NCBI GenBank assembly: GCA_036844485.1
Contig: DAIUFS010000004.1
Location: forward strand, 4,925-68,924
DNA length: 64,000 bases
Direction: 5' to 3'
Source of the DNA: Candidatus Dormiibacterota bacterium
Lineage (GTDB): Bacteria > Chloroflexota > Dormibacteria > Aeolococcales > Aeolococcaceae
Each line of letters begins with the position of its first letter. Positions within the stretch are counted from its first letter, which is position 1. The notes below the pieces were generated by a model. That model worked only from the letters and a program-made list of their open reading frames with translations. It searched no databases and was not told the DNA's origin. Shown in pieces: positions 6,812 to 25,065 of this stretch. The position numbers and the translations under genes were made by a program.

Positions 6812-7746
6812 GGCGACGGCGGTGCGGAGGTGGCGCTGTCCTCGCTCTTCACCGGGTGCCCACCGAACTCGTTGCGTAGGGCCGCGATCACCTTGTTGCC
6901 GAACCCATCGGGTCGCCGTGACTGGTAACGGGCCATCAGGGACAGCACCAGAACGGGCGCGGGCACCGAGAGGTTCATGGCTTCGTCGATGGTCCAGCGG
7001 CCCTCACCCGAATCCGCGACCCAGCCGCGCAGCTGGCTCAACTGCGCATCCCTCTCGAAGGCACGCTCGGCGAGCTCGAGCAACCAGGATCGCACCACGC
7101 TGCCCTGGTTCCAGAGGTGGGCGATGCCGTGCAGGTCCAGAGCCGGGAAGGCCTCCGACGAATGGAGGATGTCGAAGCCCTCCGCGTACGCCTGGAGCAT
7201 CCCGTACTCGATGCCGTTGTGCACCATCTTGACGTAGTGCCCGCTGCCTTCAGGCCCCACATGCAGGAAGCCGTCCTTGGGTGCCAGGGTCTCGAAGATG
7301 GGACGCAGCCTCTCCACCGCCGCGGTGTCGCCACCGACCATCAGGCAGTACCCCACGGTCAGGCCCCAGATGCCGCCGCTGGTGCCCGCGTCGATGAAGC
7401 TGATGCCCTGCGCCTTGCACCGCTGCGCGCGCGCCACGCTGTCGTGCCAGTTGCTGTTGCCACCGTCGACGATGCTGTCGCCCGGTTCCAGGCTGGCCAG
7501 CAGGGAGTCCAAAGTCTGCTCGGTAGCGGTCCCCGCCGGCACCATCATCCAGACCGCCCGCGGCGGCTGGAGCTTGGGGATGAGATCCGCGAGCGCGGTA
7601 ACGGTGGTGGCGCCGTGTTCCTCCGCGGCGGCCCTTGCCTGTTCGTTGGGATCGAACGCCACCACGGCATGGTCTCCGTCACGGCGCAGACGATGAACCA
7701 TGTTGGCCCCCATCTTCCCCAGGCCGACAAAGCCGATCTGCATCAC
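6808..7746 (-). CDS. gnd: 6-phosphogluconate dehydrogenase, decarboxylating, short (YqeC/Gnd-like) form
   Basis: 312 aa with the IGFVGLGKMGANMVHRL Rossmann motif, GGNSNW, and MVHNGIEYGMLQAYAEGF. An alternative ATG at 7743 gives an ATGA overlap with the tal-pgi stop. Confidence 0.9.
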   Translation of the reverse strand: MMQIGFVGLGKMGANMVHRLRRDGDHAVVAFDPNEQARAAAEEHGATTVTALADLIPKLQPPRAVWMMVPAGTATEQTLDSLLASLEPGDSIVDGGNSNWHDSVARAQRCKAQGISFIDAGTSGGIWGLTVGYCLMVGGDTAAVERLRPIFETLAPKDGFLHVGPEGSGHYVKMVHNGIEYGMLQAYAEGFDILHSSEAFPALDLHGIAHLWNQGSVVRSWLLELAERAFERDAQLSQLRGWVADSGEGRWTIDEAMNLSVPAPVLVLSLMARYQSRRPDGFGNKVIAALRNEFGGHPVKSEDSATSAPPSP

Positions 7747-10583
7747 CGTGCTCCCGTGGCCGCATGGATGACGGAGTCGGTCAACCTGCTCAGCCCCAGC
7801 GCCAGGTCGCCACGGATGTGCAGCCGGATGACTCGGCGACCGTGGTCTCGCAGTGATTGCAGGTCACCCTGCGCCTGCGCCTGCTTGAGGATCGAGAAGC
7901 TGAAGGGCTGGCCGGGTATGGACACATCGACCGCATCGTCGGCCGTGACCTGAATGTACAGGCCACTGTTCGGGCCACCCTTGTGCAGCTGTCCCGTGCT
8001 GTGCAGGAAGCGCGGGCCGAATCCGAGCGTGGTGGCGACGCGGTGCTCGTCACGGATGGCCACCCGCAGGCGCTGCAGGGCCGCCTCGTTCTCGCTGCTG
8101 GGGGTGACGTACGCCATCAGTGCCACGTAGTCCCCGGGGCGAACGGCGGAGAGGAACTCCGTCAGTGTGCTGTCGATGTCCTGGCGTCCGGGGGCGCCGA
8201 AGACAGAGATGCCGTCGTCGGTCGCGGACGCTGACTCGTCGGCGAGTCGGCCCGTCTTGACGTAGTGGTCGAGGACACGCCGGGTGTTGTCTTTGGACTC
8301 CTTGACGTTGGGCTCGTCGAACGGGTCGATGCCCAGCGCCGCCCCCGCGACGGCGGTGGCGAACTCCCACCGGAAGAACTCGGCCGCCAGGTCGAGGAGG
8401 TCATCCAGCTGCATGGTCACGGCGGGAAGTCCGGCACTGCGCAGCGCCCCCACCTCGGCATCGAAGTCGGGGTCGTCGTCGCGCAGGCGGAGCACGGTGA
8501 GGATGCGGTCGTCGCCGTAGACGCTGGGCTCGCCGATGGGCTCGTCGCCGATGGGGATCAGCCCCTTGCCCTCCTTGCCCGTGCTCTCGGCGATGAGCTG
8601 TTCCGCCCACAGCGAGAATGCGGCGATCCGCGCCGGCGCCAGGATGGTGACCTTGTCGCGCCCGCTGCGCCGGAGCAGCCCCAGCACAGTTCCCAGCGCG
8701 AGACCGGGGTTGAGGTCGGCCGGAATGCCGGGGCGCGATTGCCGGCGCATCTGGTCGGCGCGGTCGAGGAACGCCTCGATATCGATTCCGATGATCGCCG
8801 CCGGCACCAGGCCAAAGAAGCTGAGCGCCGAGTAGCGACCACCGATATCGGGAGGATTCTCGAACAGGTGCCGGAAGTTCCGGTCGCGTGCGGTGTCGGC
8901 CAGCGGCGATCCAGGGTCGGTGACGCAGATGAAATGCTGCCCCGCGTCGACGATTCCGGCGGACGTCACCCACTCCCAGAAGTGGGCCAGATGGCTGAGC
9001 GTCTCCAGGGTGGTCCCCGATTTCGAGGCCACGATGAAGAGCGTCGTCCGCGGGTCGAGCCGATCTGTGAGTTGGGCGATGGCAGCCGGATCGGTGGTGT
9101 CGAGGACGTGCAGCTCGGGCTGGCCGGCGGCGCTGCCGAATGAGCTCCGCAGCACCTCCGGGCACAGGCTGCTTCCGCCCATGCCCAGCAGGACGCAGTT
9201 GCGCATGCCGGCCTGCTGCACCTCGGTGGAGAGGCCGATGAGGCGAGGCAGCGCCTCGCGCATGGTGTCGATGACGTCGAGCCATCCGAGACGGTCGCCG
9301 ATGACCTTGGCATGGGCCGGGTCACCCGGCTTCCAGAGGTCGGGGTCGCGGTCCCAGATCCGGCGCGCCACATCACGGTTGGTATCGCTGGCCACGGCCG
9401 CGGCCACCGTTTCGGTGCTCGCAGCCAGGTCGAGGTGCTGGCGGCTGCCGTAGCCGCGGTGCATGGCGTCCACCTTCTCGGCGATGCCGCGGATGAGCTG
9501 GTCATACGAGTCCGAGAATGACCTGACCCCGGCCGCGAGCAGATCGGCGGTGACCTTGTCCATGTCGATTCCGACCTCGGCGAGCTGTTCCATCACCCGG
9601 TGTGCGCCCGCATAGTCGCGGTTGACGGTGCTGCCGGTGACCTGTCCATGGTCGCGGAAGGCGGTGACCGTCGCCGGCGGCATCGTGTCGACGGTGTCCG
9701 GCCCCACCAGGGCCTCGGCGTAGACGACGTCGCGGTACTTGGGATTCTTGGCGCTGGTGCTGGCCCAGAGAGGGCGCTGCACGTGCGCGCCGGCCTGCGC
9801 CAGCGGCGCGAATTCCGGCCCGCGGAAATAGTGTTCGAACTTCTCATAGGCGAGCACGGCGTTGGCGATCGCCGCCTTCCCATACAGCTCCTCGAGGGTG
9901 GCGTTGCCGGGGTCTGCCGCCAGCTTCTCGTCGATCAGCTTGTCAACCGCGGTGTCGACTCGACTCACGAAGAACGAGGCCACGGAATGAACGTCGGGTG
10001 ACTCCCCCTTGGGCTGTCGCGCCCGCAGCGCGCTCAGGTACGCGTGGATGACCGAGTCGTACGCCTCCAGAGCGAAGATGAGCGTGATGTTGATGTTGAC
10101 GCCGGCCGTCAGGGCGCGCTCGACCGCGGGCACACCCTCGGGTGTGGCGGGGATCTTCACCATGAGGTTGGGTCGGTCGACGCGCCGTGCGAAGTCCAGG
10201 GCGAGGGTGGTGCTCCGCTCGGTGTCGTGGGCCACCTCAGGCGGCAGCTCGAGGCTCACGTAGCCGTCAGCGCCACCCGTGCGATCGTGGACGGGGCGGA
10301 GGACGTCCGCGGCCAGCTGGATGTCGGTGACCGCCAGCGCCATGAAGATGTCGTGGGGATCGTCGACGCCCGAAGCAAGCAGCTCGCGGATCTGGTCGTC
10401 GTACTGGGTTCCGTCCGCGATGGCCTTCTCGAAGATGGTGGGATTGCTGGTCATCCCGGTGACGTTGTCCTCGGCGATCATCCGCTCCAGCTCGCCGCTG
10501 GTCAGCAACTCGCGGCTGATGTAGTCGAGCCAGATGGACTGCCCCTGCTCAGCCAGCTGCTGCAGCGGGTTCGATGCAGCCAT
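7743..10583 (-). CDS. bifunctional transaldolase / glucose-6-phosphate isomerase (fusion protein)
   Basis: 946 aa. The N-terminal ~370 aa is transaldolase (QSIWLDYISRELL, VTGMTSNPTIFEKA, MVKIPAT). The C-terminal ~550 aa is PGI-like (LLGMGGSSLCPEV, ASKSGTTLETL, GRYSALS, STGKEG). Confidence 0.9.
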   Translation of the reverse strand: MAASNPLQQLAEQGQSIWLDYISRELLTSGELERMIAEDNVTGMTSNPTIFEKAIADGTQYDDQIRELLASGVDDPHDIFMALAVTDIQLAADVLRPVHDRTGGADGYVSLELPPEVAHDTERSTTLALDFARRVDRPNLMVKIPATPEGVPAVERALTAGVNINITLIFALEAYDSVIHAYLSALRARQPKGESPDVHSVASFFVSRVDTAVDKLIDEKLAADPGNATLEELYGKAAIANAVLAYEKFEHYFRGPEFAPLAQAGAHVQRPLWASTSAKNPKYRDVVYAEALVGPDTVDTMPPATVTAFRDHGQVTGSTVNRDYAGAHRVMEQLAEVGIDMDKVTADLLAAGVRSFSDSYDQLIRGIAEKVDAMHRGYGSRQHLDLAASTETVAAAVASDTNRDVARRIWDRDPDLWKPGDPAHAKVIGDRLGWLDVIDTMREALPRLIGLSTEVQQAGMRNCVLLGMGGSSLCPEVLRSSFGSAAGQPELHVLDTTDPAAIAQLTDRLDPRTTLFIVASKSGTTLETLSHLAHFWEWVTSAGIVDAGQHFICVTDPGSPLADTARDRNFRHLFENPPDIGGRYSALSFFGLVPAAIIGIDIEAFLDRADQMRRQSRPGIPADLNPGLALGTVLGLLRRSGRDKVTILAPARIAAFSLWAEQLIAESTGKEGKGLIPIGDEPIGEPSVYGDDRILTVLRLRDDDPDFDAEVGALRSAGLPAVTMQLDDLLDLAAEFFRWEFATAVAGAALGIDPFDEPNVKESKDNTRRVLDHYVKTGRLADESASATDDGISVFGAPGRQDIDSTLTEFLSAVRPGDYVALMAYVTPSSENEAALQRLRVAIRDEHRVATTLGFGPRFLHSTGQLHKGGPNSGLYIQVTADDAVDVSIPGQPFSFSILKQAQAQGDLQSLRDHGRRVIRLHIRGDLALGLSRLTDSVIHAATGAR

Positions 10584-12614: not shown

Positions 12615-12693
<79 letters not shown>

Positions 12694-12777
12694 CTCCCTT
12701 CAGATGGGGGGGTTCGTATTCGAACCAGTCCCTCCACGGGGCTTCCCAACGCCGTAGCAATAGGGTACCATCTGCAT

Positions 12778-14726: not shown

Positions 14727-15015
14727 CCAGGTTCGCTGTATCTCGGGCCGAGCGGGGCGCTGGAGACGCTTTCGCCCTTGCCTCCAGGCGTCCCGCTTCC
14801 CGTAGCGTACCCCGCCATCCGGCGACGCTGGGAAGGCGGCACGGGCGGCGACGGAGTGAGCGTCAGCCCGTGGCCGCCATCCCGGCGACCCTTTACCCCG
14901 CCTCAAGACGGGCCGCCCTCTTGGTCGTGTGGCTTCCAGGAGGGGCGGCGCCGCCATGGGACGGGAGCCCGGCTCGCCGCTTGCGCCCTTGGCGAGCCGG
15001 GGCCGTGTAGCAAGC

Positions 15016-15831
15016 CTACATGCCGATGGCGAGCAGGAACTCGTCCACCTCGCGCTGGCGCAGATGCGCGTCGACGGCAAAGCGGTCCGTCAATGAGCGC
15101 ATGCCCGCGGTGGCGCCGAGGTACGCTGGGAAGGTCACCGGGCCGAACTCCTGCATGTGGAGCTCGCGCACCGTCCGCTCCGGCAGTCCCTGCGGGTTGT
15201 AGTCGGAGCGGGTCGCCTTCTTGTTGTAGTCCTCGGCGGCCACGTTGAAGCGGAAGCTCGAGCCGTAGGCGCCGGCCCGGAGTCCGGGGGCGAGGTCGCG
15301 GTTGTAGGACGTGTCGAGCAGCGGCACCTCGTAGCGGACGCCGCGATCGTCCTCCTCGAGCAGCGACGGGATGCCGAGCACCTTGTCGCCGAGCTGGGGA
15401 TCCTTGCCGTGGTTGAACGTCACCTTCATGCGGCTGCCGTTGTCGGCGATCGTCCGTTGGAAGGCGCCCGGAGCCATGCGCTCCATGAAGTGGCCTTCGC
15501 GCTGCGACTTGATCTCCGTCCACTGGTTGAAGGTGGCCAGGTAGCCGGTGAGCGTGCCGGGGCCGGCGTCACCGTCGCCGGCGTCGCGGATCTCGCACCC
15601 GGAGATCGCTCGGATTAGCCCCTCGCGCGGGAGGCTGCGATGCTCGAGCTGCGAGAGGTCGGCCGAGTTCACCTCGGCGGCGTTCCCGACGACGTCGGTC
15701 CGGCCCGCCAGCATGGTGCCGCACTGGTCGCAGTAGATGGCGTCATCGTCGTCCATCCGTCCGCACACCGGACAGACGACGACATCGTCGCCGTCCGGGC
15801 TGTACGGCTCGGGCTGGTAACCGCCAGCCAT
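15016..15831 (-). CDS. HK97-family prohead (capsid maturation) protease with an N-terminal zinc ribbon
   Basis: Start at the ATG at 15831, 5 nt after the capsid stop. CPVCG...CDQCG zinc ribbon, followed by an HK97 protease-like core (GTLTGYLATFNQWTEI...EGHFMERMAPGAFQRTI...VTFNHGKDP...LGI...EDDRGVRYEVPL). Confidence 0.75.
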   Translation of the reverse strand: MAGGYQPEPYSPDGDDVVVCPVCGRMDDDDAIYCDQCGTMLAGRTDVVGNAAEVNSADLSQLEHRSLPREGLIRAISGCEIRDAGDGDAGPGTLTGYLATFNQWTEIKSQREGHFMERMAPGAFQRTIADNGSRMKVTFNHGKDPQLGDKVLGIPSLLEEDDRGVRYEVPLLDTSYNRDLAPGLRAGAYGSSFRFNVAAEDYNKKATRSDYNPQGLPERTVRELHMQEFGPVTFPAYLGATAGMRSLTDRFAVDAHLRQREVDEFLLAIGM

Positions 15832-15836
15832 CGCGG

Positions 15837-17318
15837 TCACTTTGTCTCGAGGTAGCGGAACGCGTTCGGCTTGGCGACTGCCGTCCCGGTGCGCCACCAG
15901 TAGTAGAACCCGCGCTGACCGGTCGGGAAGCGGCTCGCAGCGCCGAAGACGTGGGGGACGAGCTCCACCTGCGAACCGATGCGGTCGCCGATCACGAAGC
16001 CGGACCAGTCGGCCACGATGGCGGTCTTCTGACCGGTCGTGGTGGTCCCGGTCTGCATCGTCGACCATTCGACCTTGGGCGTGCCCAAAAACGGCCCGCC
16101 CCGGCCGGAGCCGAACGGCTCGGGCTCGGTGGTGTTGCCGCCACCGACGAAGCGGAAGAACGTGTCCCACACGGTGGGGTGAGCGACGAAGGTGGCCTGC
16201 GTCCAGAACCGGGTCTGTGCCAGCGCGCCCTTGACGCCGTACAAATCGCCGATCACGGTCGTGGCCGTCGTGGCGGTCTGCACACGCTGGCTCGTTGTCA
16301 GGCCACCCGATGCGGCGAAGATCCCGACCGGCTCGTTGGTGCCCGTGCCGCTCAGGAACTTGGTGGCGTCCAGGATGTCGCGACCGTCGCTGAGCAGCTT
16401 CAGCAGCTCCTGCTGGAGGCCGGCCCAGTCCTGGCCCAGCTCGATCGAGAAGGGGATGAACGATTGTCCCTTCTGGGCGGTCACGGTCGGCTGCACCAAA
16501 GTCGGCGTGCCGTCCCCCACTTCCGTCAGCTCGGCCGCGTAGGTGCTCGCCGGCGTGTCGGCCGACACCAGGCGCAAGGTGTACCCGGCCATCTGGCGCA
16601 CGTCCGCCACCGACCGGATCGGGTTGAGAGCACCGGAACTGGTGAGCAGGATCGTGGGGTCGATCTCGATCGGGATGGCGAAGCCACCCGACGCCCCGGT
16701 GCCGTCCACCATGGCCCGCTCGCTCTCGACCTGGCTGACTCGCTGCATCGCGGTCATCTCGTCAGCGGTCATGCGCATGCTGGCTGTGGTCCCGTACTGC
16801 AGGAGCTTGCCAAAGGCGCTGTTGTAGGCGGGATCACCGACTGCGGCGACGTAGCGGGCGATCATGCCCGCGGGGTCGTCGTGGCGCACCACGCGCTCCA
16901 TGCTGGTTGCCGCGCGGTTGGTCATAGTGTCGCTGCCCTGGCACCGCTCGAGGACGCGCAGGGCGCCATCCAGCGCCTGCTGGCGGTGGGGAGCCACAGC
17001 GGCGGTCCGGTCGCCGTCCTGGCGCTCAGAGGCGGAGCGCTGCAGGTCCTCGAACCCGGTCCCGGCCTCGGTTGCGAACGAGCCGGCCTCGTAGGCCCGC
17101 TGGATTCCAGCGCGGTGCTCGTCGCCGAGCTCCTTGAGGCGCTCGCTGGCCCGGTCGATGCCGCGCTGCACGTTGGCGCAGCGCTCCGTCAGGCCGTCGT
17201 TGGCGCCGTCCACCTCGAGCTTGATCTCGAGTTCGCGCTTCTGGTCGATCAGTTGCGCGACGCGAGCCCGCAGGGGCTTCTCGTCGGCGCGTATCTCGCT
17301 AAGGGTTCGTTGTGGCAT
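15837..17318 (-). CDS. HK97-fold phage major capsid protein with a long N-terminal coiled-coil (scaffold/delta-like) region
   Basis: The ATG at 17318 has GGAGGTG 5 nt upstream. The N-terminus is charged and helical (KRELEIKLEVDG...RLKELGDEHR). The C-terminal part resembles HK97 MCPs (GGFAIPIEIDPTILL...ALNPIRSVADV...FIPFSIELGQDW...ATFVAHPTVW). Confidence 0.8.
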   Translation of the reverse strand: MPQRTLSEIRADEKPLRARVAQLIDQKRELEIKLEVDGANDGLTERCANVQRGIDRASERLKELGDEHRAGIQRAYEAGSFATEAGTGFEDLQRSASERQDGDRTAAVAPHRQQALDGALRVLERCQGSDTMTNRAATSMERVVRHDDPAGMIARYVAAVGDPAYNSAFGKLLQYGTTASMRMTADEMTAMQRVSQVESERAMVDGTGASGGFAIPIEIDPTILLTSSGALNPIRSVADVRQMAGYTLRLVSADTPASTYAAELTEVGDGTPTLVQPTVTAQKGQSFIPFSIELGQDWAGLQQELLKLLSDGRDILDATKFLSGTGTNEPVGIFAASGGLTTSQRVQTATTATTVIGDLYGVKGALAQTRFWTQATFVAHPTVWDTFFRFVGGGNTTEPEPFGSGRGGPFLGTPKVEWSTMQTGTTTTGQKTAIVADWSGFVIGDRIGSQVELVPHVFGAASRFPTGQRGFYYWWRTGTAVAKPNAFRYLETK

Positions 17319-17503
17319 TTCGCCACCTCCCGTGAAGTCATGTTGAAGAGGCTGCATGGCAGCTTCCGATTGACTTCCGCGGGTGGTGTGAACCAGCCTC
17401 GGCGCTCTTCGCCTTCGGATCCCTGTCCGCAACGGCGGGTGCCCGGTGCACGGTGCAGCGGACGCGGGAGCCTATTGCCCAGTGTACCACCGGATTTCCG
17501 CTC

Positions 17504-17860
17504 TCAGACAGCGGGGGGCGGGCCGCCACCGTAGATATGGTTGAGGCGGTCGTTGTCCCAGCGTTTGGTCTGCTCCTCAAGCTCCGCCCTTGCCTTCTCG
17601 TCGCCGGCGACGACCCTGGCGCGGAGATTGGCAAGCTTGCCAGCCTCGAGCATGGCGATAGCAAATCCAAGGGCTGCTGGATAGTCGAGCGGGATATCGA
17701 AGCTTGCCAGGACACCGCCGTCCCGGTCCTCAAATCGGCATTTCATGATGACGATGGGCACGGTCAGGTCTGGCGTGGTGAGGAGGTGGGGTTCCGGCTC
17801 GATGACCCAGCGGCCACCAGGGGTGTTGGTCTGCTCCATGTCAGAGTCCTCCTCGTTCAT
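17504..17860 (-). CDS. hypothetical protein (element, upstream of capsid)
   Basis: 118-aa ORF in the same orientation as the capsid operon. An alternative ATG at 17839 avoids overlap with the upstream gene. No recognisable domain. Confidence 0.5.
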   Translation of the reverse strand: MNEEDSDMEQTNTPGGRWVIEPEPHLLTTPDLTVPIVIMKCRFEDRDGGVLASFDIPLDYPAALGFAIAMLEAGKLANLRARVVAGDEKARAELEEQTKRWDNDRLNHIYGGGPPPAV

Positions 17861-18116
17861 CGGGGGTGAAGGTGAATCGCGGGTCAGGCGGCGGGATCAC
17901 ATAGCCGCCAGGCACACGCCGCCAGCCGCCCAGATCGGGATCTTCGCCAGCGGCGGGCGCCTCGTCCACTGGTGGAGCTGCAGACGCCGTCTCGACCCGG
18001 TGTCGGTCCTCACTCGCCGCCTGCCGGCAGCGCTGCCCACAGAACCGGGCGGTTCGCCGCATGGCGAGGAACCGCTCGCCGCAGCGGACGCAGGAGATCT
18101 CGCGGCGGGTCAGCAT
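17841..18116 (-). CDS. small Cys4 (zinc-ribbon-like) protein
   Basis: 91 aa with CVRCGERF...FCGQRCRQ, the first gene downstream of the 400-bp non-coding region. Confidence 0.5.
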   Translation of the reverse strand: MLTRREISCVRCGERFLAMRRTARFCGQRCRQAASEDRHRVETASAAPPVDEAPAAGEDPDLGGWRRVPGGYVIPPPDPRFTFTPDERGGL

Positions 18117-18132
18117 CCCCCGAGCCCACCAA

Positions 18133-18176
18133 AATCCGACGCTAAGGACGTGCCGGCCGACGCTAATCCGACGCTA
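18133..18176. repeat. iteron/operator-like direct repeats: AATCCGACGCTA x2 plus one partial copy
   Basis: 12-mer AATCCGACGCTA at 18133-18144 and 18165-18176. A 9-mer CCGACGCTA also occurs at 18157-18165. The repeats begin 17 bp upstream of the minus-strand ATG at 18116. Confidence 0.6.
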
Positions 18177-18512
18177 CGGGCTGGAGTTCCCCCCTTTTGC
18201 GAGGTGCGCGCGATCGCCTCAGAACGGGAAAACTGAGGCCCTGTAAGGGATATTGTCACTTGTCTCTCCTCGGTGCGGAATTTTGGTATTTCTTGCATTG
18301 AACGGACCGTGCCAAAGAGGGTCACCGGACCGTAGCGCGAGACCCCCCCGCCCCCTTGGCATAGGCAGGTCAAGGTCCACGCGTTCAGTTCCTCAGCGGC
18401 GATGTCGGGTGGTCTCGGTCATGGCGTGGTGTCGGTGATGGGTGGTGGTGGATCGCGGACGATGAGGCCCTGCCACTGGTCCCACCCGAGCGACGCGGGA
18501 TACCCCGCTGCA

Positions 18513-18917
18513 TCAGAAAGGCAGCTCGTCTGCGGTGCCCGGACGTGGGGCATGAGGCACGTATCCAGCGGCGGCCATCTGCTCGGCCCAGTAGGCAGCC
18601 TGCTCGGCCTCCAGGCGGTCGTACTCGCCGCGATCCGCCGGCACGACACAGGAGGCGATGCTGCGATGCCAGGCCGCGTCATGGGCGCTCTCGCTCTGCT
18701 CCCTGTCGGCAGTGACAAGGATTCTCTGCCGCAGTGCATCCGGCGACAAGAAGGCACAGTCGTCGCAGACGGGGTGCTCGTCACCATCCTCGTCATTGAG
18801 GAAGGAGACGATCTCCACCTTGCTGATCATCTCGTCGCAGAGGTGGCACCAGCGCCGTGTGAGATGCGTCACCAGCTCGGGGCGGATAAGGATGCTGGTC
18901 GCTGTCGTGTCGGTCAT
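18513..18917 (-). CDS. hypothetical Cys-containing protein
   Basis: Start chosen at the ATG at 18917 (MTDTTATSILIRPELV...). Contains CHLCDE...CDDC. The upstream part of ORF 18513..19226 looks like non-coding composition. Confidence 0.5.
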   Translation of the reverse strand: MTDTTATSILIRPELVTHLTRRWCHLCDEMISKVEIVSFLNDEDGDEHPVCDDCAFLSPDALRQRILVTADREQSESAHDAAWHRSIASCVVPADRGEYDRLEAEQAAYWAEQMAAAGYVPHAPRPGTADELPF

Positions 18918-18951: not shown

Positions 18952-19284
18952 TCATGTCGCCTCGCCGGACGGGTTGCCGGGGCGGGATCGCCCGCTACTC
19001 GAGGGGCGGCAGCGCCCGCATCGCTCATTGGGATCGCCGGCCCGGAGCATGGCGGCGGCGGTGCTCCCACAGCCCGGGCACGGGGGATGGTGGAGCGCCT
19101 CGGAGAGCAGGATCTCGACGGGCTTGGAGAGCTCGGCGATGAGCTCGTCGCGGTGGGTGCGGATGTAGACCCGAAGGCCCGGTGTGATCCGAGCCGCAGG
19201 ACGCACCAGAAGGTGGCCGTCGTCATCCGCGGCGGCGGTAACCCTGGCGTCGATGAGGGGAGCGAGCAGGTTTGCGGTGGTCAT
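18952..19284 (-). CDS. hypothetical protein: TubC_N-like N-terminal motif plus a C-terminal zinc ribbon
   Basis: The ATG at 19284 forms an ATGA overlap with the helicase stop. N-terminus: LLAPLIDARV...DGHLLVRPAARITPGLRVYIRTHRDELIAEL. C-terminus: CPGCG...CGRC. Confidence 0.55.
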   Translation of the reverse strand: MTTANLLAPLIDARVTAAADDDGHLLVRPAARITPGLRVYIRTHRDELIAELSKPVEILLSEALHHPPCPGCGSTAAAMLRAGDPNERCGRCRPSSSGRSRPGNPSGEAT

Positions 19285-20852
19285 CAGAAGACCTCCGCCC
19301 CAGTCGCGGCAGTTGGAACAACAATGGAGTCGACCGCGGACCACTGCGGACCAGCGCCACTGTCGGCCGGTTGGTCCGCGTTGGTCCGCGGTCGCGGCCA
19401 TTGTGGGTCGGGGTGTAGATCAGCTTGCTTCGTGGCGACGCCGGCGTACCGGCGGGGCCGACGATCGCCCTCCTCTTCTCGAGGTCGGTGGATGCGCAGG
19501 TCCGGCACGACGGCTCGAAGATCTCGGCCGAACGTCTGGGTCGAGCCTGGTCGATGGCCATTGTCCTCTGCCCATCGCTTCCACTCGGAGTACAGCTGGT
19601 CGCAGGCCACCTCAAGCCCTGCTCCGCGGACGCAGCGATCCCGTACAAAGGCAGCCACCGGTGACACGAGATCCGCCAGGGCGATGACGGCATCGACCGA
19701 CGACTTCGGCTCGGTGAATCGGTCACGCTCACAAAGACGATCGAGCCCGTCCAAGGCCCAGTTGAGGATCCCTGGCAGCTCATCGGCGAGGTCAGGTTCG
19801 AGGGTGCGATCCTCCCGCCCCAGCCACGTCTCGGTCAGGGCGAGCACCACGAAACGGTTGGCGATCGCCCCCGAAGCATCACCGAACCGCGGCAGCTCAT
19901 TGGAGATGATCACGAATCGGGTGGGGAACTGGCCCGTCCATGGGTCGCGATATTTCCTGTCCACGGTGAGCATGTCGCGGCCGGAGATGGCCAGTAGCCG
20001 CTCGACAACCTGGTGGGTGTCCGCGTGGCCGAGGCGGGCATCGCTGATCACCGCCAGGGGCTTACCAATAAGATCCTGGAGCCCGAAGTTCTGGCCGAGG
20101 CTGGCGAGGGTGGGCCCGGCGACGTTGCCGGTGCCGATCAGCCGCCCGAGCATCCGCGTGATGACTCCCTTGCCAGCTCGGGTGGGACCGATCAGCAGGA
20201 GGATCTTGTCTAGATCCGTGCGACCGGAGAGCACATAGCCCATGAACTGCTGGAGCGCGCTGATGGCATCGGAGTCGTCCGGCCAGAGCTGCTCGAGGAA
20301 TCTCAACCAGCGGCCCGGGACGGATGCGTGGGCGTCGAAGTCGAAGGGCACCGAGACCTGCGTGAAGTAGCGCGGGTCATGCGCGTGCAACTCCCGGCTG
20401 GCCACGTCGAGCATGCCATTCTTGCAGACCACGATCTGCTCAGGGCCGCTCGCGCCATCAATCCAGACGGGCGGGTGCACAGTGTTCGTGAGGTGCGCGA
20501 CCGCTCCCATGGCCTCGAGCAGGTCGGTGCACTTGTGTCGATTCGGCGCCCAGTCGCGGAGCTCCTCACCGTCCTTTGTCGCGTGGACGTAGACGGCGTG
20601 CTCGGCTTGACGGTAGGCCCGAGCGCGGACGGTGCGCTCCTCGATCTCCGCCCAGACGCCACGCTCCCACTGCATCCACGAGCCGCGCCAGTGCCGCAGC
20701 ATGAGCGCACCGTTCTCGTGATGCTGTTCGGCGATCAGCTCGCGCGCCGTCGCCATCGGATTCGAGGGGGGCGGCAGGGTGCGAGGCTCACACTTCGCCT
20801 CGCCGGCGTCGCCGAGCAGGAGCATGGCCTCCTGTCGATTCGTCGCGCTCAT
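19284..20852 (-). CDS. phage/plasmid primase P4-family C-terminal domain protein (D5_N + SF3 helicase / NTPase)
   Basis: 522 aa with Walker A LLIGPTRAGKGV, Walker B-like LAVISDARL, and motif C FVIISNELP. The upstream D5_N-like region reads YFTQVSVPFDFD...LRFLEQLWPDD...LQQFMGYVLSG. Confidence 0.85.
   Translation of the reverse strand: MSATNRQEAMLLLGDAGEAKCEPRTLPPPSNPMATARELIAEQHHENGALMLRHWRGSWMQWERGVWAEIEERTVRARAYRQAEHAVYVHATKDGEELRDWAPNRHKCTDLLEAMGAVAHLTNTVHPPVWIDGASGPEQIVVCKNGMLDVASRELHAHDPRYFTQVSVPFDFDAHASVPGRWLRFLEQLWPDDSDAISALQQFMGYVLSGRTDLDKILLLIGPTRAGKGVITRMLGRLIGTGNVAGPTLASLGQNFGLQDLIGKPLAVISDARLGHADTHQVVERLLAISGRDMLTVDRKYRDPWTGQFPTRFVIISNELPRFGDASGAIANRFVVLALTETWLGREDRTLEPDLADELPGILNWALDGLDRLCERDRFTEPKSSVDAVIALADLVSPVAAFVRDRCVRGAGLEVACDQLYSEWKRWAEDNGHRPGSTQTFGRDLRAVVPDLRIHRPREEEGDRRPRRYAGVATKQADLHPDPQWPRPRTNADQPADSGAGPQWSAVDSIVVPTAATGAEVF
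19336..19389. repeat. four copies of an 8-bp motif (GCGGACCA / TGGTCCGC) arranged as an inverted pair of 10-bp-phased doublets; candidate replication origin or binding site
   Basis: GCGGACCA at 19336-19343 and 19346-19353. The inverted copy TGGTCCGC is at 19372-19379 and 19382-19389, where TTGGTCCGCG is an exact tandem. The site lies in the extreme 3' tail of the helicase ORF. Confidence 0.55.
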
Positions 20853-21361
20853 GCCGGCTCGTCCGTGGCGATGGCGGCGTCCACCGCCAGCGCGAGCCCG
20901 ACGTGGTCGACGCCGCAGGCCGCACTCACGACCCGCAGCGCAGCCGTGATCCGTTTGTCGAGGGTGCCGCGGACGAAGGCCAGCCTCGCCACCTCGCCGA
21001 GCAGCGCCGCCACCTGGTCATCGCCGAACGACGCCAGCGCAGGGCGGCCGTTCGGGTTCATGGTGATGGTGCCTTTCCAGGCCCGCGGCTTGAAGCGCTC
21101 GCGGCTTCGGGGTGGGAACAGGTCGGGGAACGACAACCCCGCGCTCATCACGATGTCGGCATTCGCACAGGACGCGAAGCAGTGCAGCAGCACGCGCCCG
21201 TCGTCGCCCTCCTTGACGCTGAGGGAGGCTTGGCGGTCATCGTGGTTCGGACACCGCGCCGTCCATCCGGCGCCGCTGCGACGCGTCCCCTCGAGGTGGC
21301 TCAGGACGCGGTCGACTGGCGTGGTAAAGTTAGGGTTGGAGCGCGGTGGCTGCAACACCAT
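20849..21361 (-). CDS. primase-type zinc-finger protein (no recognisable catalytic primase domain)
   Basis: WTARCPNHDDRQASLSVKEGDDGRVLLHCFASC is the CHC2-like pattern seen at the N-terminus of phage/plasmid primases. The start is taken at the ATG at 21361. ATGA-type overlap with the helicase start. Confidence 0.6.
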   Translation of the reverse strand: MVLQPPRSNPNFTTPVDRVLSHLEGTRRSGAGWTARCPNHDDRQASLSVKEGDDGRVLLHCFASCANADIVMSAGLSFPDLFPPRSRERFKPRAWKGTITMNPNGRPALASFGDDQVAALLGEVARLAFVRGTLDKRITAALRVVSAACGVDHVGLALAVDAAIATDEPA

Positions 21362-21674
21362 CCTCCGCAAACGCCCTGGTCCTGGTCGGGACTGGGGCGT
21401 TTCTTGTCTCGGCGTCGGCAAGCAGTTCACCGGCTCCGTGCAGCACGGGCATTGCCACTAGGACGCGGACGATCTCTCGCAGGGTGCGCTCAGAGATGGG
21501 TGCTCCATTCCGGCATCTCGTGAGGGTGTTCGGGCTGACGCGGGCAGCTCTGGCGACCGCGCCGGCGGTGGCGCCGCGGATGCGAAGCTCTCGCCGAAAG
21601 CGAGCGGGATCGAGGCGCAGTCCAGCATCACGTCGCTCCGATGCGAGCAGGGTGGTTGACGGTTGCTGCTCCAT
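21330..21674 (-). CDS. XRE-family HTH regulator (head of the replication operon)
   Basis: 114 aa with RIRGATAGAVARAARVSPNTLTRCRNGAPISERTLREIVRVL, an HTH_3-like pattern. Confidence 0.7.
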   Translation of the reverse strand: MEQQPSTTLLASERRDAGLRLDPARFRRELRIRGATAGAVARAARVSPNTLTRCRNGAPISERTLREIVRVLVAMPVLHGAGELLADAETRNAPVPTRTRAFAEDGVAATALQP

Positions 21675-21716: not shown

Positions 21717-22220
21717 ATGGATTGGCCAAGGCAGTCCGCGATAGTTGGAGAGCTGATGGAAGGTTGGATGAAGGCAGAGCCGATCGGCGACGCCCTCGAC
21801 TTCAGAATGGAGGTGTTTCGTGGGGACGGGCTGCACATCACGGCCACGGTGCACGTAGCCGACAACGGCCGGCGACTCGTGTGTCGCGCCCTCGAGTTGA
21901 GCACCGAGGATGGCCAGATCGACAGCCATCTACTCCGCGCGTTGAGCCTGGCAACACTGTGCCGGCGAGCCGCCGACCACATGGTAGGGCGGATCCCCCT
22001 GCCCAAACCGCGGTCGCTGACCGATGAGTTTCTCGCGCAGGTTGCTGTCGTCTACCGCCAGGCGATCCACAGAACGACGTGGACGGCTGTCGCCGAACTG
22101 CAGCAGTCCTGGTTCGGGGAGAAGAGGCCTGCAACGGAGACCACCGCTCGGCGCTGGATAGCCCTAGCTCGCGAGGCTGGGCACCTGAGGGAGACCATCA
22201 AGGGGCGCAAGGGAGGATGA
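21717..22220 (+). CDS. hypothetical protein with a possible C-terminal HTH, divergent from the XRE gene
   Basis: 167-aa ORF. A -10-like CTTAAT at 21701-21706 lies 10 nt before the ATG. The C-terminus TTARRWIALAREAGHL looks HTH-like. Confidence 0.55.
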   Translation: MDWPRQSAIVGELMEGWMKAEPIGDALDFRMEVFRGDGLHITATVHVADNGRRLVCRALELSTEDGQIDSHLLRALSLATLCRRAADHMVGRIPLPKPRSLTDEFLAQVAVVYRQAIHRTTWTAVAELQQSWFGEKRPATETTARRWIALAREAGHLRETIKGRKGG

Positions 22221-22326: not shown

Positions 22327-22384
22327 TAGAGCGTCTGACTACGGATCAGAAGGTCGCGGGTTCAAATCCTGCTGGGCGCGCCAC
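22327..22384 (+). repeat. attR: duplicated 58-bp 3' fragment of tRNA-Arg (not a functional tRNA)
   Basis: Identical to 12636-12693. It lacks the acceptor 5' strand and the D-arm. Confidence 0.9.
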
Positions 22385-22451
22385 ACCCCGCTGGGACAGT
22401 GCCCGTCCGCAACGGTGCGGCGCAGGGCATTCGCCTACACTCCGTGGCTCC

Positions 22452-22868
22452 ATGAAGGGTCTGGGACGCATCTCCGCCGCCATCGGTGCCGCACTTGCCG
22501 GGCTGGGCGCGGCCGTCTTCCTGCACCCCCGGTCGGGGGCGCGCAACCGGAGCGCGGCCGCCGGCGTGGCCCGGCGCCAGTCCGCCAACGTGGCCACCAT
22601 GGTCGGGGCGTCCGTCGCTCGCGCCCCTGGGCGTGCCTCGCGCAGCGCAGCGGAGGTGGCGGATCGCGTGCGCGCCGCCCTCGCGGAGCAGCATCCCGGG
22701 GCGGTCGCGCTCCAGCTGACCGTCCAGAAGGGGACGGTGACCCTGCGGGGCGAGGTGGACCAACTCGACGATATCGACGCCCTCGAGGAGACGGCTCGGT
22801 CCGTGGCCGGGGTGACCGACGTCAACAACCTGCTCCGGCTTCCCACCCCCGCCGCCATCGGGGGATGA
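22452..22868 (+). CDS. BON-domain protein with an N-terminal membrane anchor
   Basis: 138 aa. The hydrophobic N-terminus is followed by VADRVRAAL...VALQLTVQKGTVTLRGEVDQLDDIDALEETARSVAGVTDVNNLL, a BON pattern. Confidence 0.7.
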   Translation: MKGLGRISAAIGAALAGLGAAVFLHPRSGARNRSAAAGVARRQSANVATMVGASVARAPGRASRSAAEVADRVRAALAEQHPGAVALQLTVQKGTVTLRGEVDQLDDIDALEETARSVAGVTDVNNLLRLPTPAAIGG

Positions 22869-22902
22869 GGCTCGCCGGACCCGGGTCCGGGTCGCGCCGG
22901 CC

Positions 22903-23943
22903 GTGACGCTGCCCGTCCTGCCCCCCCTGGAGCCGATGCTCGCGCGCGCCGCCGAGCAGATCCCGGCGGGGCCGGGCTGGCGGTACGAGCCCAAGTGGGA
23001 TGGCTTTCGCACCCTTGTCTTCCGCGACGGCTCCGATGTTCTTCTGGCCAGCCGCAACGGTCAGCCGCTGCAGCGGTTCTTCCCGGAGATCCTCGAGCCA
23101 CTGCGGGCGGCGCTGCCCGACCCGGCGGTCGTCGACGGCGAGATCATCATCGCCACCCCGCGCGGCCTCGACTTCGACGCGCTGCAGATGCGCCTCCATC
23201 CCGCCGCGTCACGGGTCGCCCGCCTGGCCGGCGAGACCCCTGCCACGGTGATCCTCTTCGACCTGCTCGGCGAGGGGACCGACGATGTGCGCGACCGGCC
23301 TCTGGCGACCAGGCGTGAGCTCCTCCTCGGCGCCGTCACCCCCAACGCGCGCGTGGCGCTGACTCCGCATACCGTAGACGTCGACGAGGCCGGCGACTGG
23401 TTCACGCGCTACGAGGGCGCCGGGCTGGACGGGATCATCGCCAAGCCTGAGAACAGCCGGTACCGCGCCGGCGAGCGCGGCTGGACCAAGGTGAAGCACC
23501 TCCGCACGGTCGATTGCGTGGTCGGCGGCTTCCGCATGGGGGTGAAGGGCGACGGAGTCGGGTCGTTGCTGCTCGGCCTCTTCGACAGCGATGGCGTGCT
23601 CCATCTCGCCGGGCACACGTCCTCCTTCTCCGCTCAGGAGCGCCGCGACCTGGTGCAGCTGCTGACGCCGCTGACGGGAGGGCAGAGCTTCGGCCACGGC
23701 CGCACCCCCGGAGCGCCGAGCCGGTGGTCGCGAGAGAAGGACGCCGCCTGGACGGCGGTGACCCCCTCGCTGGTGTGCGAGGTGTCGTTCGATCATCTCC
23801 AGGGGCAGCGGTTCCGCCACGCCGCGCGCTTCCGGCGCTGGCGGCCGGATCGGGATCCCTCGACCTGCACCTACGATCAGCTCACTCCCGCGGACGCCTT
23901 CCGCCTCGGCGACATCGTCGACCTTCCCGACGCCGGCGGGTGA
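22903..23943 (+). CDS. ATP-dependent DNA ligase (LigC-like, adenylation + OB domains only)
   Basis: 346 aa with YEPKWDGFR (motif I, KxDG), DGEII, LFDLL, GLDGIIAK and WTKVKH motifs. GTG start. Confidence 0.9.
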   Translation: MTLPVLPPLEPMLARAAEQIPAGPGWRYEPKWDGFRTLVFRDGSDVLLASRNGQPLQRFFPEILEPLRAALPDPAVVDGEIIIATPRGLDFDALQMRLHPAASRVARLAGETPATVILFDLLGEGTDDVRDRPLATRRELLLGAVTPNARVALTPHTVDVDEAGDWFTRYEGAGLDGIIAKPENSRYRAGERGWTKVKHLRTVDCVVGGFRMGVKGDGVGSLLLGLFDSDGVLHLAGHTSSFSAQERRDLVQLLTPLTGGQSFGHGRTPGAPSRWSREKDAAWTAVTPSLVCEVSFDHLQGQRFRHAARFRRWRPDRDPSTCTYDQLTPADAFRLGDIVDLPDAGG

Positions 23944-23985
23944 GGCTCACGCAGCCCGCAGGTACGCGCCGCCTAGCATCACCTG

Positions 23986-25065
23986 GTGCCCCGCCGCGCC
24001 CAGCGCATCAACACGGATCCCGTCGTCAGCGCACGGGCCGCCGGACTCCGCTATGTCAACGACGGCTCACCGGGGATCCGTCGCGAGCCCACGCCGGGCG
24101 CGGGATTCCGCTATGTCGGCCCCGACGGCCGGACCGTGCGGCGAGCGGCGGAGCTCCAGCGCATCGCCCATCTTGCGGTGCCGCCGGCTTGGACTGACGT
24201 CTGGATCTGTCCGGTGGCCAACGGTCACCTCCAGGCCACCGGACGGGATGCCCGCGGCCGCAAGCAATACCGCTACCACGAGGGGTGGCGCGAGGCCCGT
24301 GACGCCATCAAGTACGAGCGCATTCTTGCGTTCGGTGCGGCGCTCCCGCGCATCCGTGCCCGCGTGGACGGCGATCTGCGCGGGCCCGACCTCAGTCGCG
24401 AACGTGTTCTCGCTACCATCGTTCGCCTGCTCGACACCACCTACATCCGGGTCGGCAATGAGGAGTACGCGCGCGAGAACCGATCGTTCGGCCTGACCAC
24501 CATGCGGGGGCGGCACGTTGCGGTGGAGGGCTCAAAGCTGCGATTCCAGTTCCGCGGCAAGGGCGGCAAGCAACACACCGTGGGCATCACCGATCGCAGG
24601 GTGGCGCGAGTCATCACCCGACTGCAGGAGCTGCCCGGCCAGCCGCTCTTCCAGTGGCAGGACGATGACGATGCCGTCCACGGCGTCGAGTCCGACGACG
24701 TCAACGGATACATCCGCGACGCTGCCGGCGAGGACTTCACCGCCAAGGACTTTCGCACCTGGGCAGGGACGGTTCTGGCCGCGTGGGCCCTCCACGAGCT
24801 CGGCGAGTACGCCTCCGAGATGCAGGCCAAGCGCCAGGTCGTCGCGGCCGTGGAGTCCGTGGCCCGCGATCTGGGTAACACCCCGGCGGTGTGCCGTCGC
24901 TGCTACGTGCACCCGGAGGTGATCAACGCGCACCTCGACGGTGCGCTCGTCGCCAACCTGGGGCGCCGGGCCGAGGAGACGCTGGCGGAGTCGCTCGACG
25001 ACCTGTCCGCGCGAGAGGCCGCCGTCCTCGCGTTCCTGCGGCGGCGGCTCGCCGACGCGGCGTGA
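23986..25065 (+). CDS. DNA topoisomerase IB (poxvirus-like bacterial TopIB)
   Basis: 359 aa with GRKQYRYH, IRVGNEEYARENRSFGLTT, FRGKGGKQH, FTAKDFRTWAGT and GNTPAVCRRCYVHP (catalytic Tyr region). Confidence 0.85.
   Translation: MPRRAQRINTDPVVSARAAGLRYVNDGSPGIRREPTPGAGFRYVGPDGRTVRRAAELQRIAHLAVPPAWTDVWICPVANGHLQATGRDARGRKQYRYHEGWREARDAIKYERILAFGAALPRIRARVDGDLRGPDLSRERVLATIVRLLDTTYIRVGNEEYARENRSFGLTTMRGRHVAVEGSKLRFQFRGKGGKQHTVGITDRRVARVITRLQELPGQPLFQWQDDDDAVHGVESDDVNGYIRDAAGEDFTAKDFRTWAGTVLAAWALHELGEYASEMQAKRQVVAAVESVARDLGNTPAVCRRCYVHPEVINAHLDGALVANLGRRAEETLAESLDDLSAREAAVLAFLRRRLADAA

Follow-up and report, generated by a model that had tools for sequence, protein, structure and literature searches.

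The window analysed here is a stretch of 64,000 nucleotides from a Candidatus Dormiibacterota bacterium (assembly GCA_036844485.1, contig DAIUFS010000004.1, positions 4,925 to 68,924), and the subject of this analysis is a small integrated element within it, carrying a major capsid gene followed directly by a prohead protease gene. The element lies at a tRNA-Arg(ACG) gene and is bounded by two copies of a 63-nt direct repeat (attL and attR), identical at 61 of 63 positions (97%) and spaced by 9691 nt, which gives an island of 9.69 kb. A tyrosine integrase and a helix-turn-helix (HTH) regulator are located next to attL, and a divergent gene, orf167, next to attR. Between them runs a leftward series formed by orf114, a CHC2 zinc-finger primase-like protein, a P4/D5-type primase-helicase, orf110, orf134, a non-coding gap, orf91, orf111, the capsid and the protease, the last two being the distal end of a single leftward operon. 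The open reading frames (ORFs) of the island are intact and present a strong third-position GC bias, and the NCBI record of this metagenome-assembled genome (MAG) annotates the island alike.

Portal, terminase, tail and lysis genes were not identified in the island by ORF size, profiles or tblastn, and a tblastn search of the whole window with the Brujita portal and two large terminases gave nothing better than E 0.04. An earlier note, made from the letters of this stretch, had already stated that no portal is present, and these searches bear it out. Coordinates of all the features are collected in Table 1.

Capsid and protease proteins

The upstream gene of the pair codes for a major capsid protein. 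Residues 211-491 match Pfam Phage_capsid (PF05065; E 3.9e-29, 102.4 bits against a cut-off of 24.2), the match to TIGR01554 reaches 112.8 bits (cut-off 27.5), and the protein also matches PHROG 10, a major head protein family. The sole solved structure related to it by sequence is PDB 9lw6 (E 1.6e-49), which according to its Foldseek description is the capsid protein of the prolate-headed mycobacteriophage Mycofy1 (Li et al. 2025, as cited in PMC13595954). The AlphaFold model, with a mean predicted local distance difference test (pLDDT) of 82, is all-helical over approximately residues 1-204 (positions 17318-16707), with long helices at 6-37 and 41-77, and comprises an HK97-fold core at approximately 205-493. 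Foldseek matches of this predicted model were Mycofy1, the gene transfer agent RcGTA, EcCI2 (a capsid-forming phage-inducible chromosomal island, cf-PICI), the Staphylococcus aureus pathogenicity island SaPI1 and HK97, all with probability 1.0; for the C-terminal 290 residues or so, the target-normalised TM-score (TMt) to the capsids of Mycofy1, RcGTA and HK97 is 0.68-0.81. Encapsulins were absent among the top 50 Foldseek matches, and Phage_capsid was the sole capsid-type match in Pfam. The HK97 fold assigned to this protein in the earlier note is therefore upheld by profiles and by the predicted structure, and so is the strong ribosome-binding site, identified as GGGAGGTGG with its GGAGG core 7 nt ahead of the capsid ATG.

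The same note had described a coiled-coil N-terminal extension of approximately 190 aa as something unusual. The extension exists, with about 204 helical residues, but it does not appear to be an oddity. Brujita gp7 aligns with capsid residues 21-493, and Brujita gp7 together with many Gordonia and Rhodococcus phage capsids presents about 30% identity over 86-99% of the query, the identity to capsid proteins of prolate-headed phages being 30-34%. In Mycofy1 the capsid protein has 543 aa, of which just about 293 residues are modelled in the mature head. Since these phage proteins align over the helical segment, and since the Mycofy1 model covers about 293 of 543 residues, the segment is best read from the alignments as the fused scaffolding (delta) domain that is normal for capsids of this family.

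The downstream gene codes for a prohead (capsid maturation) serine protease of the S78/HK97 type, as had been proposed, with a length of 271 aa and not the 272 aa given before. Residues 87-243 match Pfam Peptidase_S78 (PF04586; E 9.3e-23, 81.6 bits against a cut-off of 21) and the protein matches PHROG 80, head maturation protease (E 1e-28). It is a member of the Pfam family and falls outside the NCBI 'equivalog' group of the HK97 protease. The AlphaFold model has a pLDDT of 80, above 90 in the core; its best Foldseek match is T4 gp21 (5jbl, E 8e-5, probability 1.0), followed by herpesvirus proteases, and in BFVD a head maturation protease was matched with E 4e-26, a query-normalised TM-score (TMq) of 0.69 and a root-mean-square deviation (rmsd) of 2.5 Å over 209 columns. 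Residues H141 (in FNHGKD) and S192 (in YGSSFRF), 51 positions apart, are invariant in 63 protease homologs, and from knowledge of HK97 gp4 we take them to be the putative catalytic pair. The C-terminal helix, whose EFLxLIG tail is kept in close relatives, is a candidate capsid-targeting signal. The identical protein sequence was also seen to be encoded by 4 contigs, which come from 3 sources.

A GC-rich hairpin located 14 nt past the protease stop (-31.5 kcal/mol, z -2.3, with 5 of 200 shuffled sequences folding as well) may end the operon, with weak to moderate support. The terminator scan gave no excess over shuffles, and nothing was found in the sigma-70 promoter scan.

Gene order and junction among related loci

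Two surveys were made of related loci, one of a genome collection with the protease alignment (48 loci) and the other of IMG/VR with the capsid alignment (80 loci). Among the IMG/VR loci the protease precedes the capsid in 72 of the 72 that contain both genes, 67 of them with a Brujita-like portal upstream, and the reversed order was found in none. The genome scan comprises approximately 30 loci with the protease first, four of them as fused ORFs; in most of them a match to a Brujita-like portal, to a large terminase or to both lies directly upstream, and they look like full prophages. The capsid precedes the protease in eight genome loci (L001, L002, L004, L007, L021, L026, L044 and L046), belonging to Dormibacterota, Solirubrobacterales and other actinomycete MAGs, and in six more loci, on metagenome contigs with the nearest homologs (L049, L050, L051, L052, L053 and L055). 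The closest relatives of the window island are Dormibacterota MAGs.

No portal match was identified in the eight genome or the six metagenome loci with the capsid first. In those scanned flanks that were of sufficient length, the neighbours are integrases, replication proteins (DUF3631, AAA_25 or Toprim) and genes of the host. A neighbour-joining (NJ) tree built from 108 capsid cores unites the eight capsids of reversed order in a single clade, from which canonical loci are absent. Because all 72 viral loci are canonical, the reversed loci are portal-less and their capsids are monophyletic, the reversed order is a feature conserved within one lineage of islands that lack the portal. The placing of the capsid before the protease, singled out as unusual in the earlier note, is thus confirmed as such for this capsid family.

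The junction of the two genes is also shared. In the window 5 nt separate the capsid TGA from the protease ATG, and neither a GGAGG-like motif nor any other Shine-Dalgarno sequence was found ahead of that ATG, so that coordinates and sequence agree with the earlier description. Dormibacterota-type loci present the junction stop-N2-6-ATGGCNGGC, which is seen again in independent loci, and two other loci have overlapping genes. Given that the same order and the same 2-6 nt junction recur in independent loci, the arrangement goes beyond chance. The geometry fits translational coupling, as had been suggested, and a protease stoichiometry below that of the capsid may reasonably be inferred.

Fusion of capsid and protease by programmed frameshift or read-through was considered and rejected, the frame relation of the two genes being different among relatives: in the window the protease is out of frame with the capsid; its frame opens directly past the capsid stop in L052/L053, L046 and L001; and in several loci it is closed farther upstream.

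Some of the related loci differ in content. A related Dormibacterota island (L001, positions 6160-7755) has a capsid with 63% identity and a protease whose N-terminus, of DUF6582 type, appears frameshifted; it is the only one of the eight with a large terminase (TerL ATPase and nuclease domains), directly before the capsid and still with no portal. Two metagenome loci (L049, 111-1414; L050, 9354-10657) contain a 213-aa capsid fragment, the same 5-nt junction and then a 218-aa protease, 90% identical to that of the window, with the zinc ribbon cleanly deleted; in L050 the capsid fragment directly adjoins a host universal-stress-protein gene, and the arrangement suggests a copy of this element in decay. 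Two other metagenome loci, L056 and L057, are small islands with more distant capsid relatives (47-51% identity) and no recognisable protease gene beside the capsid, one containing DUF3631 and a tyrosine integrase and the other a serine recombinase, an HNH protein and WhiB; some islands of this wider family may therefore do without the protease. Contigs of 8-11 kb with capsid homologs were considered as free circular or packaged genomes and this was rejected: the three examined carry integrases or recombinases, L055 additionally has host genes on one side, and none of the three has signs of a complete free genome.

Zinc ribbon and remaining features of the island

The protease has a zinc ribbon at its N-terminus, with the motif C20-x2-C23-x10-C34-x2-C37, that is CPVCG-x9-CDQCG; the earlier note had placed the ribbon correctly in this protein and had given the spacing wrongly as x16. 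In the AlphaFold model it is formed by two short strands (residues 17-40, pLDDT about 75), which superpose on the ArnA zinc ribbon over 25 residues with an rmsd of 0.9 in Foldseek, and is followed by a low-confidence region at residues 41-66. Third-position GC is 0.88-0.93 across the capsid and protease ORFs and, within the protease, 0.89 for codons 1-66 against 0.93 for the remainder. Being part of the same uninterrupted ORF, with a similarly high third-position GC, the ribbon is not a separate upstream mini-ORF, a case that the earlier note had held open against its own proposal. As a single copy it scores below the gathering threshold of the Pfam zinc-ribbon models (E about 1e-3), and homologous two-copy relatives pass Pfam DZR (42 bits against 27).

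The N-terminus varies in content among the closest homologs of the protease, with nothing, one ribbon, two tandem ribbons or a DUF6582 domain, and relatives overall present 0 to 3 ribbon copies or DUF6582 instead. Homologs lacking the ribbon are 218-aa proteins, 81-90% identical in the protease domain; two tandem ribbons were identified in P0002, P0005, P0007, P0012, P0035, P0052 and P0083, and DUF6582 takes the place of the ribbon in P0008, P0009, P0016 and others. Ribbons are also found in loci with a portal and the canonical order: three ahead of the protease in L020, two in L041, and two after the protease in the portal-bearing IMG/VR loci L106 and L128, where they lie within polyproteins of approximately 1095 aa. 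The layout of the latter is S78 at 37-197, DZR at 236-303, a His-rich stretch, a scaffolding region and Phage_capsid at 811-1091; the polyproteins are encoded at L106:7913-11194 and L128:7877-11164, and the His-rich stretch reads HSHPHP...HSHEHTHDGD.... The unit common to the window protease and these four loci is CPxC...(N/D)xxDAxFCDQCG.

No ribbon was found in the matching phage-database proteases, no INPHARED record spanning the protease N-terminus, and the literature search on zinc ribbons in prohead proteases gave no relevant paper. The suggestion that the ribbon is foreign to canonical HK97 proteases agrees with this absence and has to be restricted in view of its recurrence in portal-bearing relatives. 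From sequence comparison, the ribbon is a recurrent, movable and copy-number-variable accessory of internal head proteins in this phage group; it is tied neither to the reversed order nor to satellites, and close relatives manage without it. Our best guess on its role, held with low confidence, is a tethered module for protein-protein contacts inside the procapsid. Three more small CxxC-type zinc-ribbon proteins are encoded in the island, namely orf91, orf110 (with a weak SprT-ribbon match) and the CHC2 primase-like protein, so that the density of zinc ribbons is high for an element of 9.7 kb.

Regarding the replication and regulatory part, the primase-helicase exceeds the cut-off of TIGR01613 (158 bits against 108.7) and matches a PHROG of DNA primases (E 1.6e-69). 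The probable regulator orf114 is kept in L004 (64%) and L013 (45%), and orf167 is called in the NCBI record as 21768-22220, with 150 aa. No match to orf111 was found in Pfam, PHROG or NCBIfam; an exhaustive search among 1.84 billion representatives placed it in 4 clusters, and a word-index search returned the query alone.

The gap of approximately 400 nt separates orf134 from the late genes orf91, orf111, capsid and protease. It contains TAGCGTCGG three times within some 50 nt of the sense strand, immediately ahead of the orf91 start, with a partial inverted copy about 120 nt off, and could be an operator, a late promoter, a replication origin (ori) or a packaging (pac) site. A decayed terminase or portal was sought at 18.1-19.3 kb and rejected: tblastn gave E 0.04 or worse, and this segment consists of two small intact ORFs and the non-coding gap.

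The flanks are formed by ordinary chromosomal genes: a pentose-phosphate operon, a DNA ligase and a topoisomerase IB. Just outside attL, the operon (transketolase, a 6PGD-like protein, G6PD and OpcA) includes at 7743-10583, on the minus strand, a gene of 946 aa fusing transaldolase and glucose-6-phosphate isomerase. Directly outside attR, at 22452-25065, lie a BON-domain protein, an ATP-dependent DNA ligase and a bacterial type IB topoisomerase.

Table 1. Features of the island, in window coordinates (orf, open reading frame; SD, Shine-Dalgarno)
Feature	Position	Strand	Basis
tRNA-Arg(ACG), integration target	12615..12692	+	ARAGORN; Rfam tRNA, 64 bits
attL, 63-nt direct repeat over the 3' part of the tRNA	12636..12698	unstranded	repeat search
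Tyrosine integrase, 321 aa	12778..13743	+	Pfam Phage_integrase, E 1.4e-27; third-position GC 0.84
XRE/Cro-C1-type HTH regulator, 61 aa	14053..14238	+	Pfam HTH_3, E 1.8e-15; NCBI MAG record
GC-rich hairpin, possible operon terminator without T-run	14968..15001	minus	11-bp stem; RNA fold
Prohead serine protease, S78/HK97 type, 271 aa (ATG at 15831, end at 15016)	15016..15831	minus	PF04586; AlphaFold; Foldseek
Protease C-terminal helix, residues 248-268, EFLxLIG tail	15028..15090	minus	model; tail kept in close relatives
Protease zinc ribbon, residues 17-40 (C20, C23, C34, C37)	15712..15783	minus	sequence; model
Capsid TGA to protease ATG junction, CCGCG, 5 nt, no SD	15832..15836	minus	read from sequence
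Major capsid protein, 493 aa (ATG at 17318, TGA at 15839-15837)	15837..17318	minus	PF05065; TIGR01554; PDB 9lw6 match; Foldseek
SD sequence of the capsid gene, GGGAGGTGG	17323..17331	minus	read from sequence
orf111, adjoining the capsid gene upstream	17504..17839	minus	tblastn matches in L002 and L004
orf91, small CxxC...CxxxC zinc-ribbon protein	17841..18116	minus	PHROG 6975 (unknown function), E 3.4e-7; kept in L004
Non-coding gap, ~400 nt	18117..18512	unstranded	no coding periodicity; TAGCGTCGG repeats
orf134, hypothetical	18513..18917	minus	coding periodicity; NCBI record
orf110, hypothetical	18952..19284	minus	coding periodicity; NCBI and JGI records
P4/D5-type primase-helicase, 522 aa	19284..20852	minus	Pfam D5_N, DUF5906, Pox_D5
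CHC2 zinc-finger primase-like protein	20849..21358	minus	Zn_ribbon_DnaG, E 1.5e-4; PHROG 6088, E 1e-12; NCBI start
orf114, probable HTH regulator, head of the leftward operon	21330..21674	minus	HTH_31, E 2.9e-4, below cut-off
orf167, divergent hypothetical gene near attR	21717..22220	+	tblastn, L004, 46% identity, E 9e-31
attR, second copy of the 63-nt repeat (partial tRNA)	22327..22389	unstranded	partial tRNA match, 28.6 bits

Nature of the element and comparison with known systems

The element is probably a phage satellite resembling phiRv and the PICIs, of the 'integrase + capsid' kind. This reading is favoured because it is a 9.7-kb island with integrase and primase located at a tRNA gene; it is flanked by att sites with the integrase at one end, has its own replication genes and regulators, and contains an incomplete set of virion genes. 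Small islands with integrase and capsid at tRNA genes have been reported as candidate PICIs in Mycobacterium, including phiRv1 and phiRv2 (PMC10654092, PMC10085698), and the median size of the PICIs identified by SatelliteFinder is 9.5 kb (PMC10085698). With the phiRv-type candidates the window island shares the small attL/attR-bounded format, the tyrosine integrase at a tRNA gene (in the types with that integrase), a replication or primase gene, an HK97-type capsid and too few virion genes for a phage, the function being inferred in both. It differs from them in its non-mycobacterial host, in the capsid preceding the protease, in the zinc ribbon on the protease and in lacking a large terminase, which the relative L001 does have. 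In phiRv2 the order is presumably terminase, protease, capsid.

Other satellites share part of this repertoire. The cf-PICI EcCI2 (PDB 9gyi) has its own HK97-fold capsid and a protease, and its capsid matches the predicted fold with probability 1.0 and TMt 0.71. Such elements also encode the portal, the head-tail connectors and the packaging proteins, and take only tails from the helper. The window island, lacking portal and connectors, is not a member of that group. The Ccm protein of SaPIbov5 turns the prolate heads of the helper into small isometric ones (PMC8569155), and is likewise a satellite homolog of the capsid protein of a prolate-headed helper encoded in a portal-less island; unlike the window capsid, with its full delta domain and its own protease, Ccm supplies just the pentamers, the rest of the shell being helper protein, and is not paired with a protease.

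Among phages, the nearest head modules are those of Brujita/Mycofy1-like actinophages and related viral contigs, which have an N-terminal delta domain of about 200-250 residues, capsids 30-34% identical to that of the window and an S78 protease whose domain is 50-60% identical for many contigs. Their order is terminase-portal-protease-capsid, sometimes with protease and capsid fused, and the portal is present. The polyproteins of L106/L128 and the proteases of L020/L041 likewise combine this zinc-ribbon unit with an S78 protease of the family found in the window, with the differences that the units are two or three, that portals and the canonical order are found, and that in L106/L128 the units lie between the protease and the scaffolding part of the capsid. 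HK97 gp5 and gp4 have both of these folds and follow the same principle, in which a delta domain acts as scaffold and is removed by a co-encapsidated serine protease; the window differs from them in gene order, in a delta domain about twice as long, in the zinc ribbon and in the protease scoring below the cut-off of TIGR01543.

Three other explanations have to be weighed against a satellite. That the island is what deletions have left of a Brujita-like prophage, with the reversed order as a by-product of rearrangement and no present mobile function, would explain the missing portal, terminase, tail and lysis genes, and decay does occur in this family, as seen in the 213-aa capsid fragment and zinc-less protease of L049/L050 and the frameshifted protease of L001. 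The nearly identical att copies, the intact ORFs with their codon-position GC bias, the stop-start junction kept in relatives and the identical protease gene on contigs from several samples all speak against it. Moreover, the same compact portal-less layout is found in different bacterial lineages, whose capsids form one clade although identity falls to about 40%, and random decay would not repeatedly yield the same gene set; a remnant is therefore considered unlikely.

That capsid and/or zinc-ribbon protease act mainly against a helper, by co-assembly with its capsid protein as in Ccm of SaPIbov5, or by entering its procapsids and miscleaving them, instead of forming complete satellite shells, is suggested by the resemblance of the capsid to those of prolate-headed phages, by the precedent of Ccm, a satellite capsid homolog redirecting prolate heads (PMC8569155), and by the variable protease N-termini (0-3 zinc ribbons or DUF6582), which look like swappable adaptors. 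A full scaffolding domain with its own protease suggests instead autonomous shell formation, and the same ribbon modules occur in head proteins of portal-bearing relatives, so that they are not satellite-specific weapons; such an interference device seems distinctly improbable. Hardly to be credited is a self-sufficient closed shell, encapsulin-like or of another portal-less type, with a cellular or defensive purpose. The absence of a portal gene, the ability of HK97-fold proteins to form closed shells and the conserved C-terminal tail of the protease, which resembles a cargo-loading peptide by position only, would agree with it. The long delta domain and the dedicated maturation protease are, however, hallmarks of phage capsids and not of family-1 encapsulins, Phage_capsid is the only capsid-type Pfam match, encapsulins are missing from the best 50 fold matches, the neighbouring genes include none of cargo type, and the genes lie inside an att-flanked island with integrase and primase. 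Of the two uses that the earlier note had proposed for a portal-less module, closed shells are thus unsupported, and the use of the capsid machinery of a helper is the one favoured by the island context.

Several points weigh against the satellite reading. A helper phage was not identified, and none was found by tblastn in the window. No packaging-specificity gene (small terminase, Ppi/Rpp-like or HNH) and no cos or pac site was recognised in the island, and orf111, orf91, orf134 and orf110 have no informative family matches. The protease reaches 50.9 bits against the NCBIfam equivalog TIGR01543 (HK97 protease), under its cut-off of 59, and the NJ tree of the protease, a shorter domain, fails to group the reversed-order loci. 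Translational coupling is read from the geometry of the junction. Finally, decayed copies exist (truncated capsid in L049/L050, frameshifted protease N-terminus in L001), and for this reason individual copies of the element can be dead.

As a satellite, the element would follow a life style that can be outlined from its genes. On induction by a helper, probably a Brujita/Mycofy1-like siphophage with the order terminase-portal-protease-capsid, it would excise and replicate with its own primase-helicase. The capsid protein would be made in large amounts from the strong ribosome-binding site and, with the helical delta domain of about 200 residues as built-in scaffold, would assemble into shells on a portal supplied by the helper; these shells are probably small, sized for about 10 kb, given the genome of 9.7 kb. 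The protease would be translated by ribosomes arriving from the end of the capsid gene, its amount being tied to that of the capsid and below it, and would enter the procapsid, probably through the conserved C-terminal helix. There it would cut off the delta domain near residue 205 or so with H141/S192 and then digest itself, the zinc ribbon being a small, flexibly tethered accessory, probably for protein-protein contacts, and the terminase and tails of the helper would complete the particle.

This kind of element is already known as a candidate class, and its folds and the logic of the delta domain are textbook. What is new is modest: the capsid-then-protease operon, joined stop to start, as signature of a portal-less lineage that reaches Dormibacterota, and the zinc ribbons and DUF6582 as interchangeable add-ons of S78 proteases in this group. 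A bolder joint proposal, which we regard as doubtful, is that the tightly joined reversed operon marks an undescribed lineage of minimal capsid-forming satellites. Having lost the portal and usually the terminase, they would retain a self-scaffolding capsid with its protease and would form small shells of their own on a portal taken from a helper, while the exchangeable N-termini of the protease (0-3 zinc ribbons or DUF6582) would be helper-specific adaptors or interference devices; such a lineage would span Dormibacterota and several actinobacterial orders.

If the element were only a decaying prophage, little of this would matter. Many actinobacteria contain small 'integrase + capsid' islands, phiRv1 and phiRv2 of M. 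tuberculosis among them, and nobody has shown how they work; one such lineage extends into the uncultured phylum Dormibacterota. The portal-less arrangement of capsid then protease, stop to start, was confined in this survey to the islands and seen in none of the related viral contigs or portal-bearing loci, and it could serve to find such elements in genome sequences. With just two genes, the module also lends itself to a direct test of size-determined shells and of the role of the zinc ribbon.

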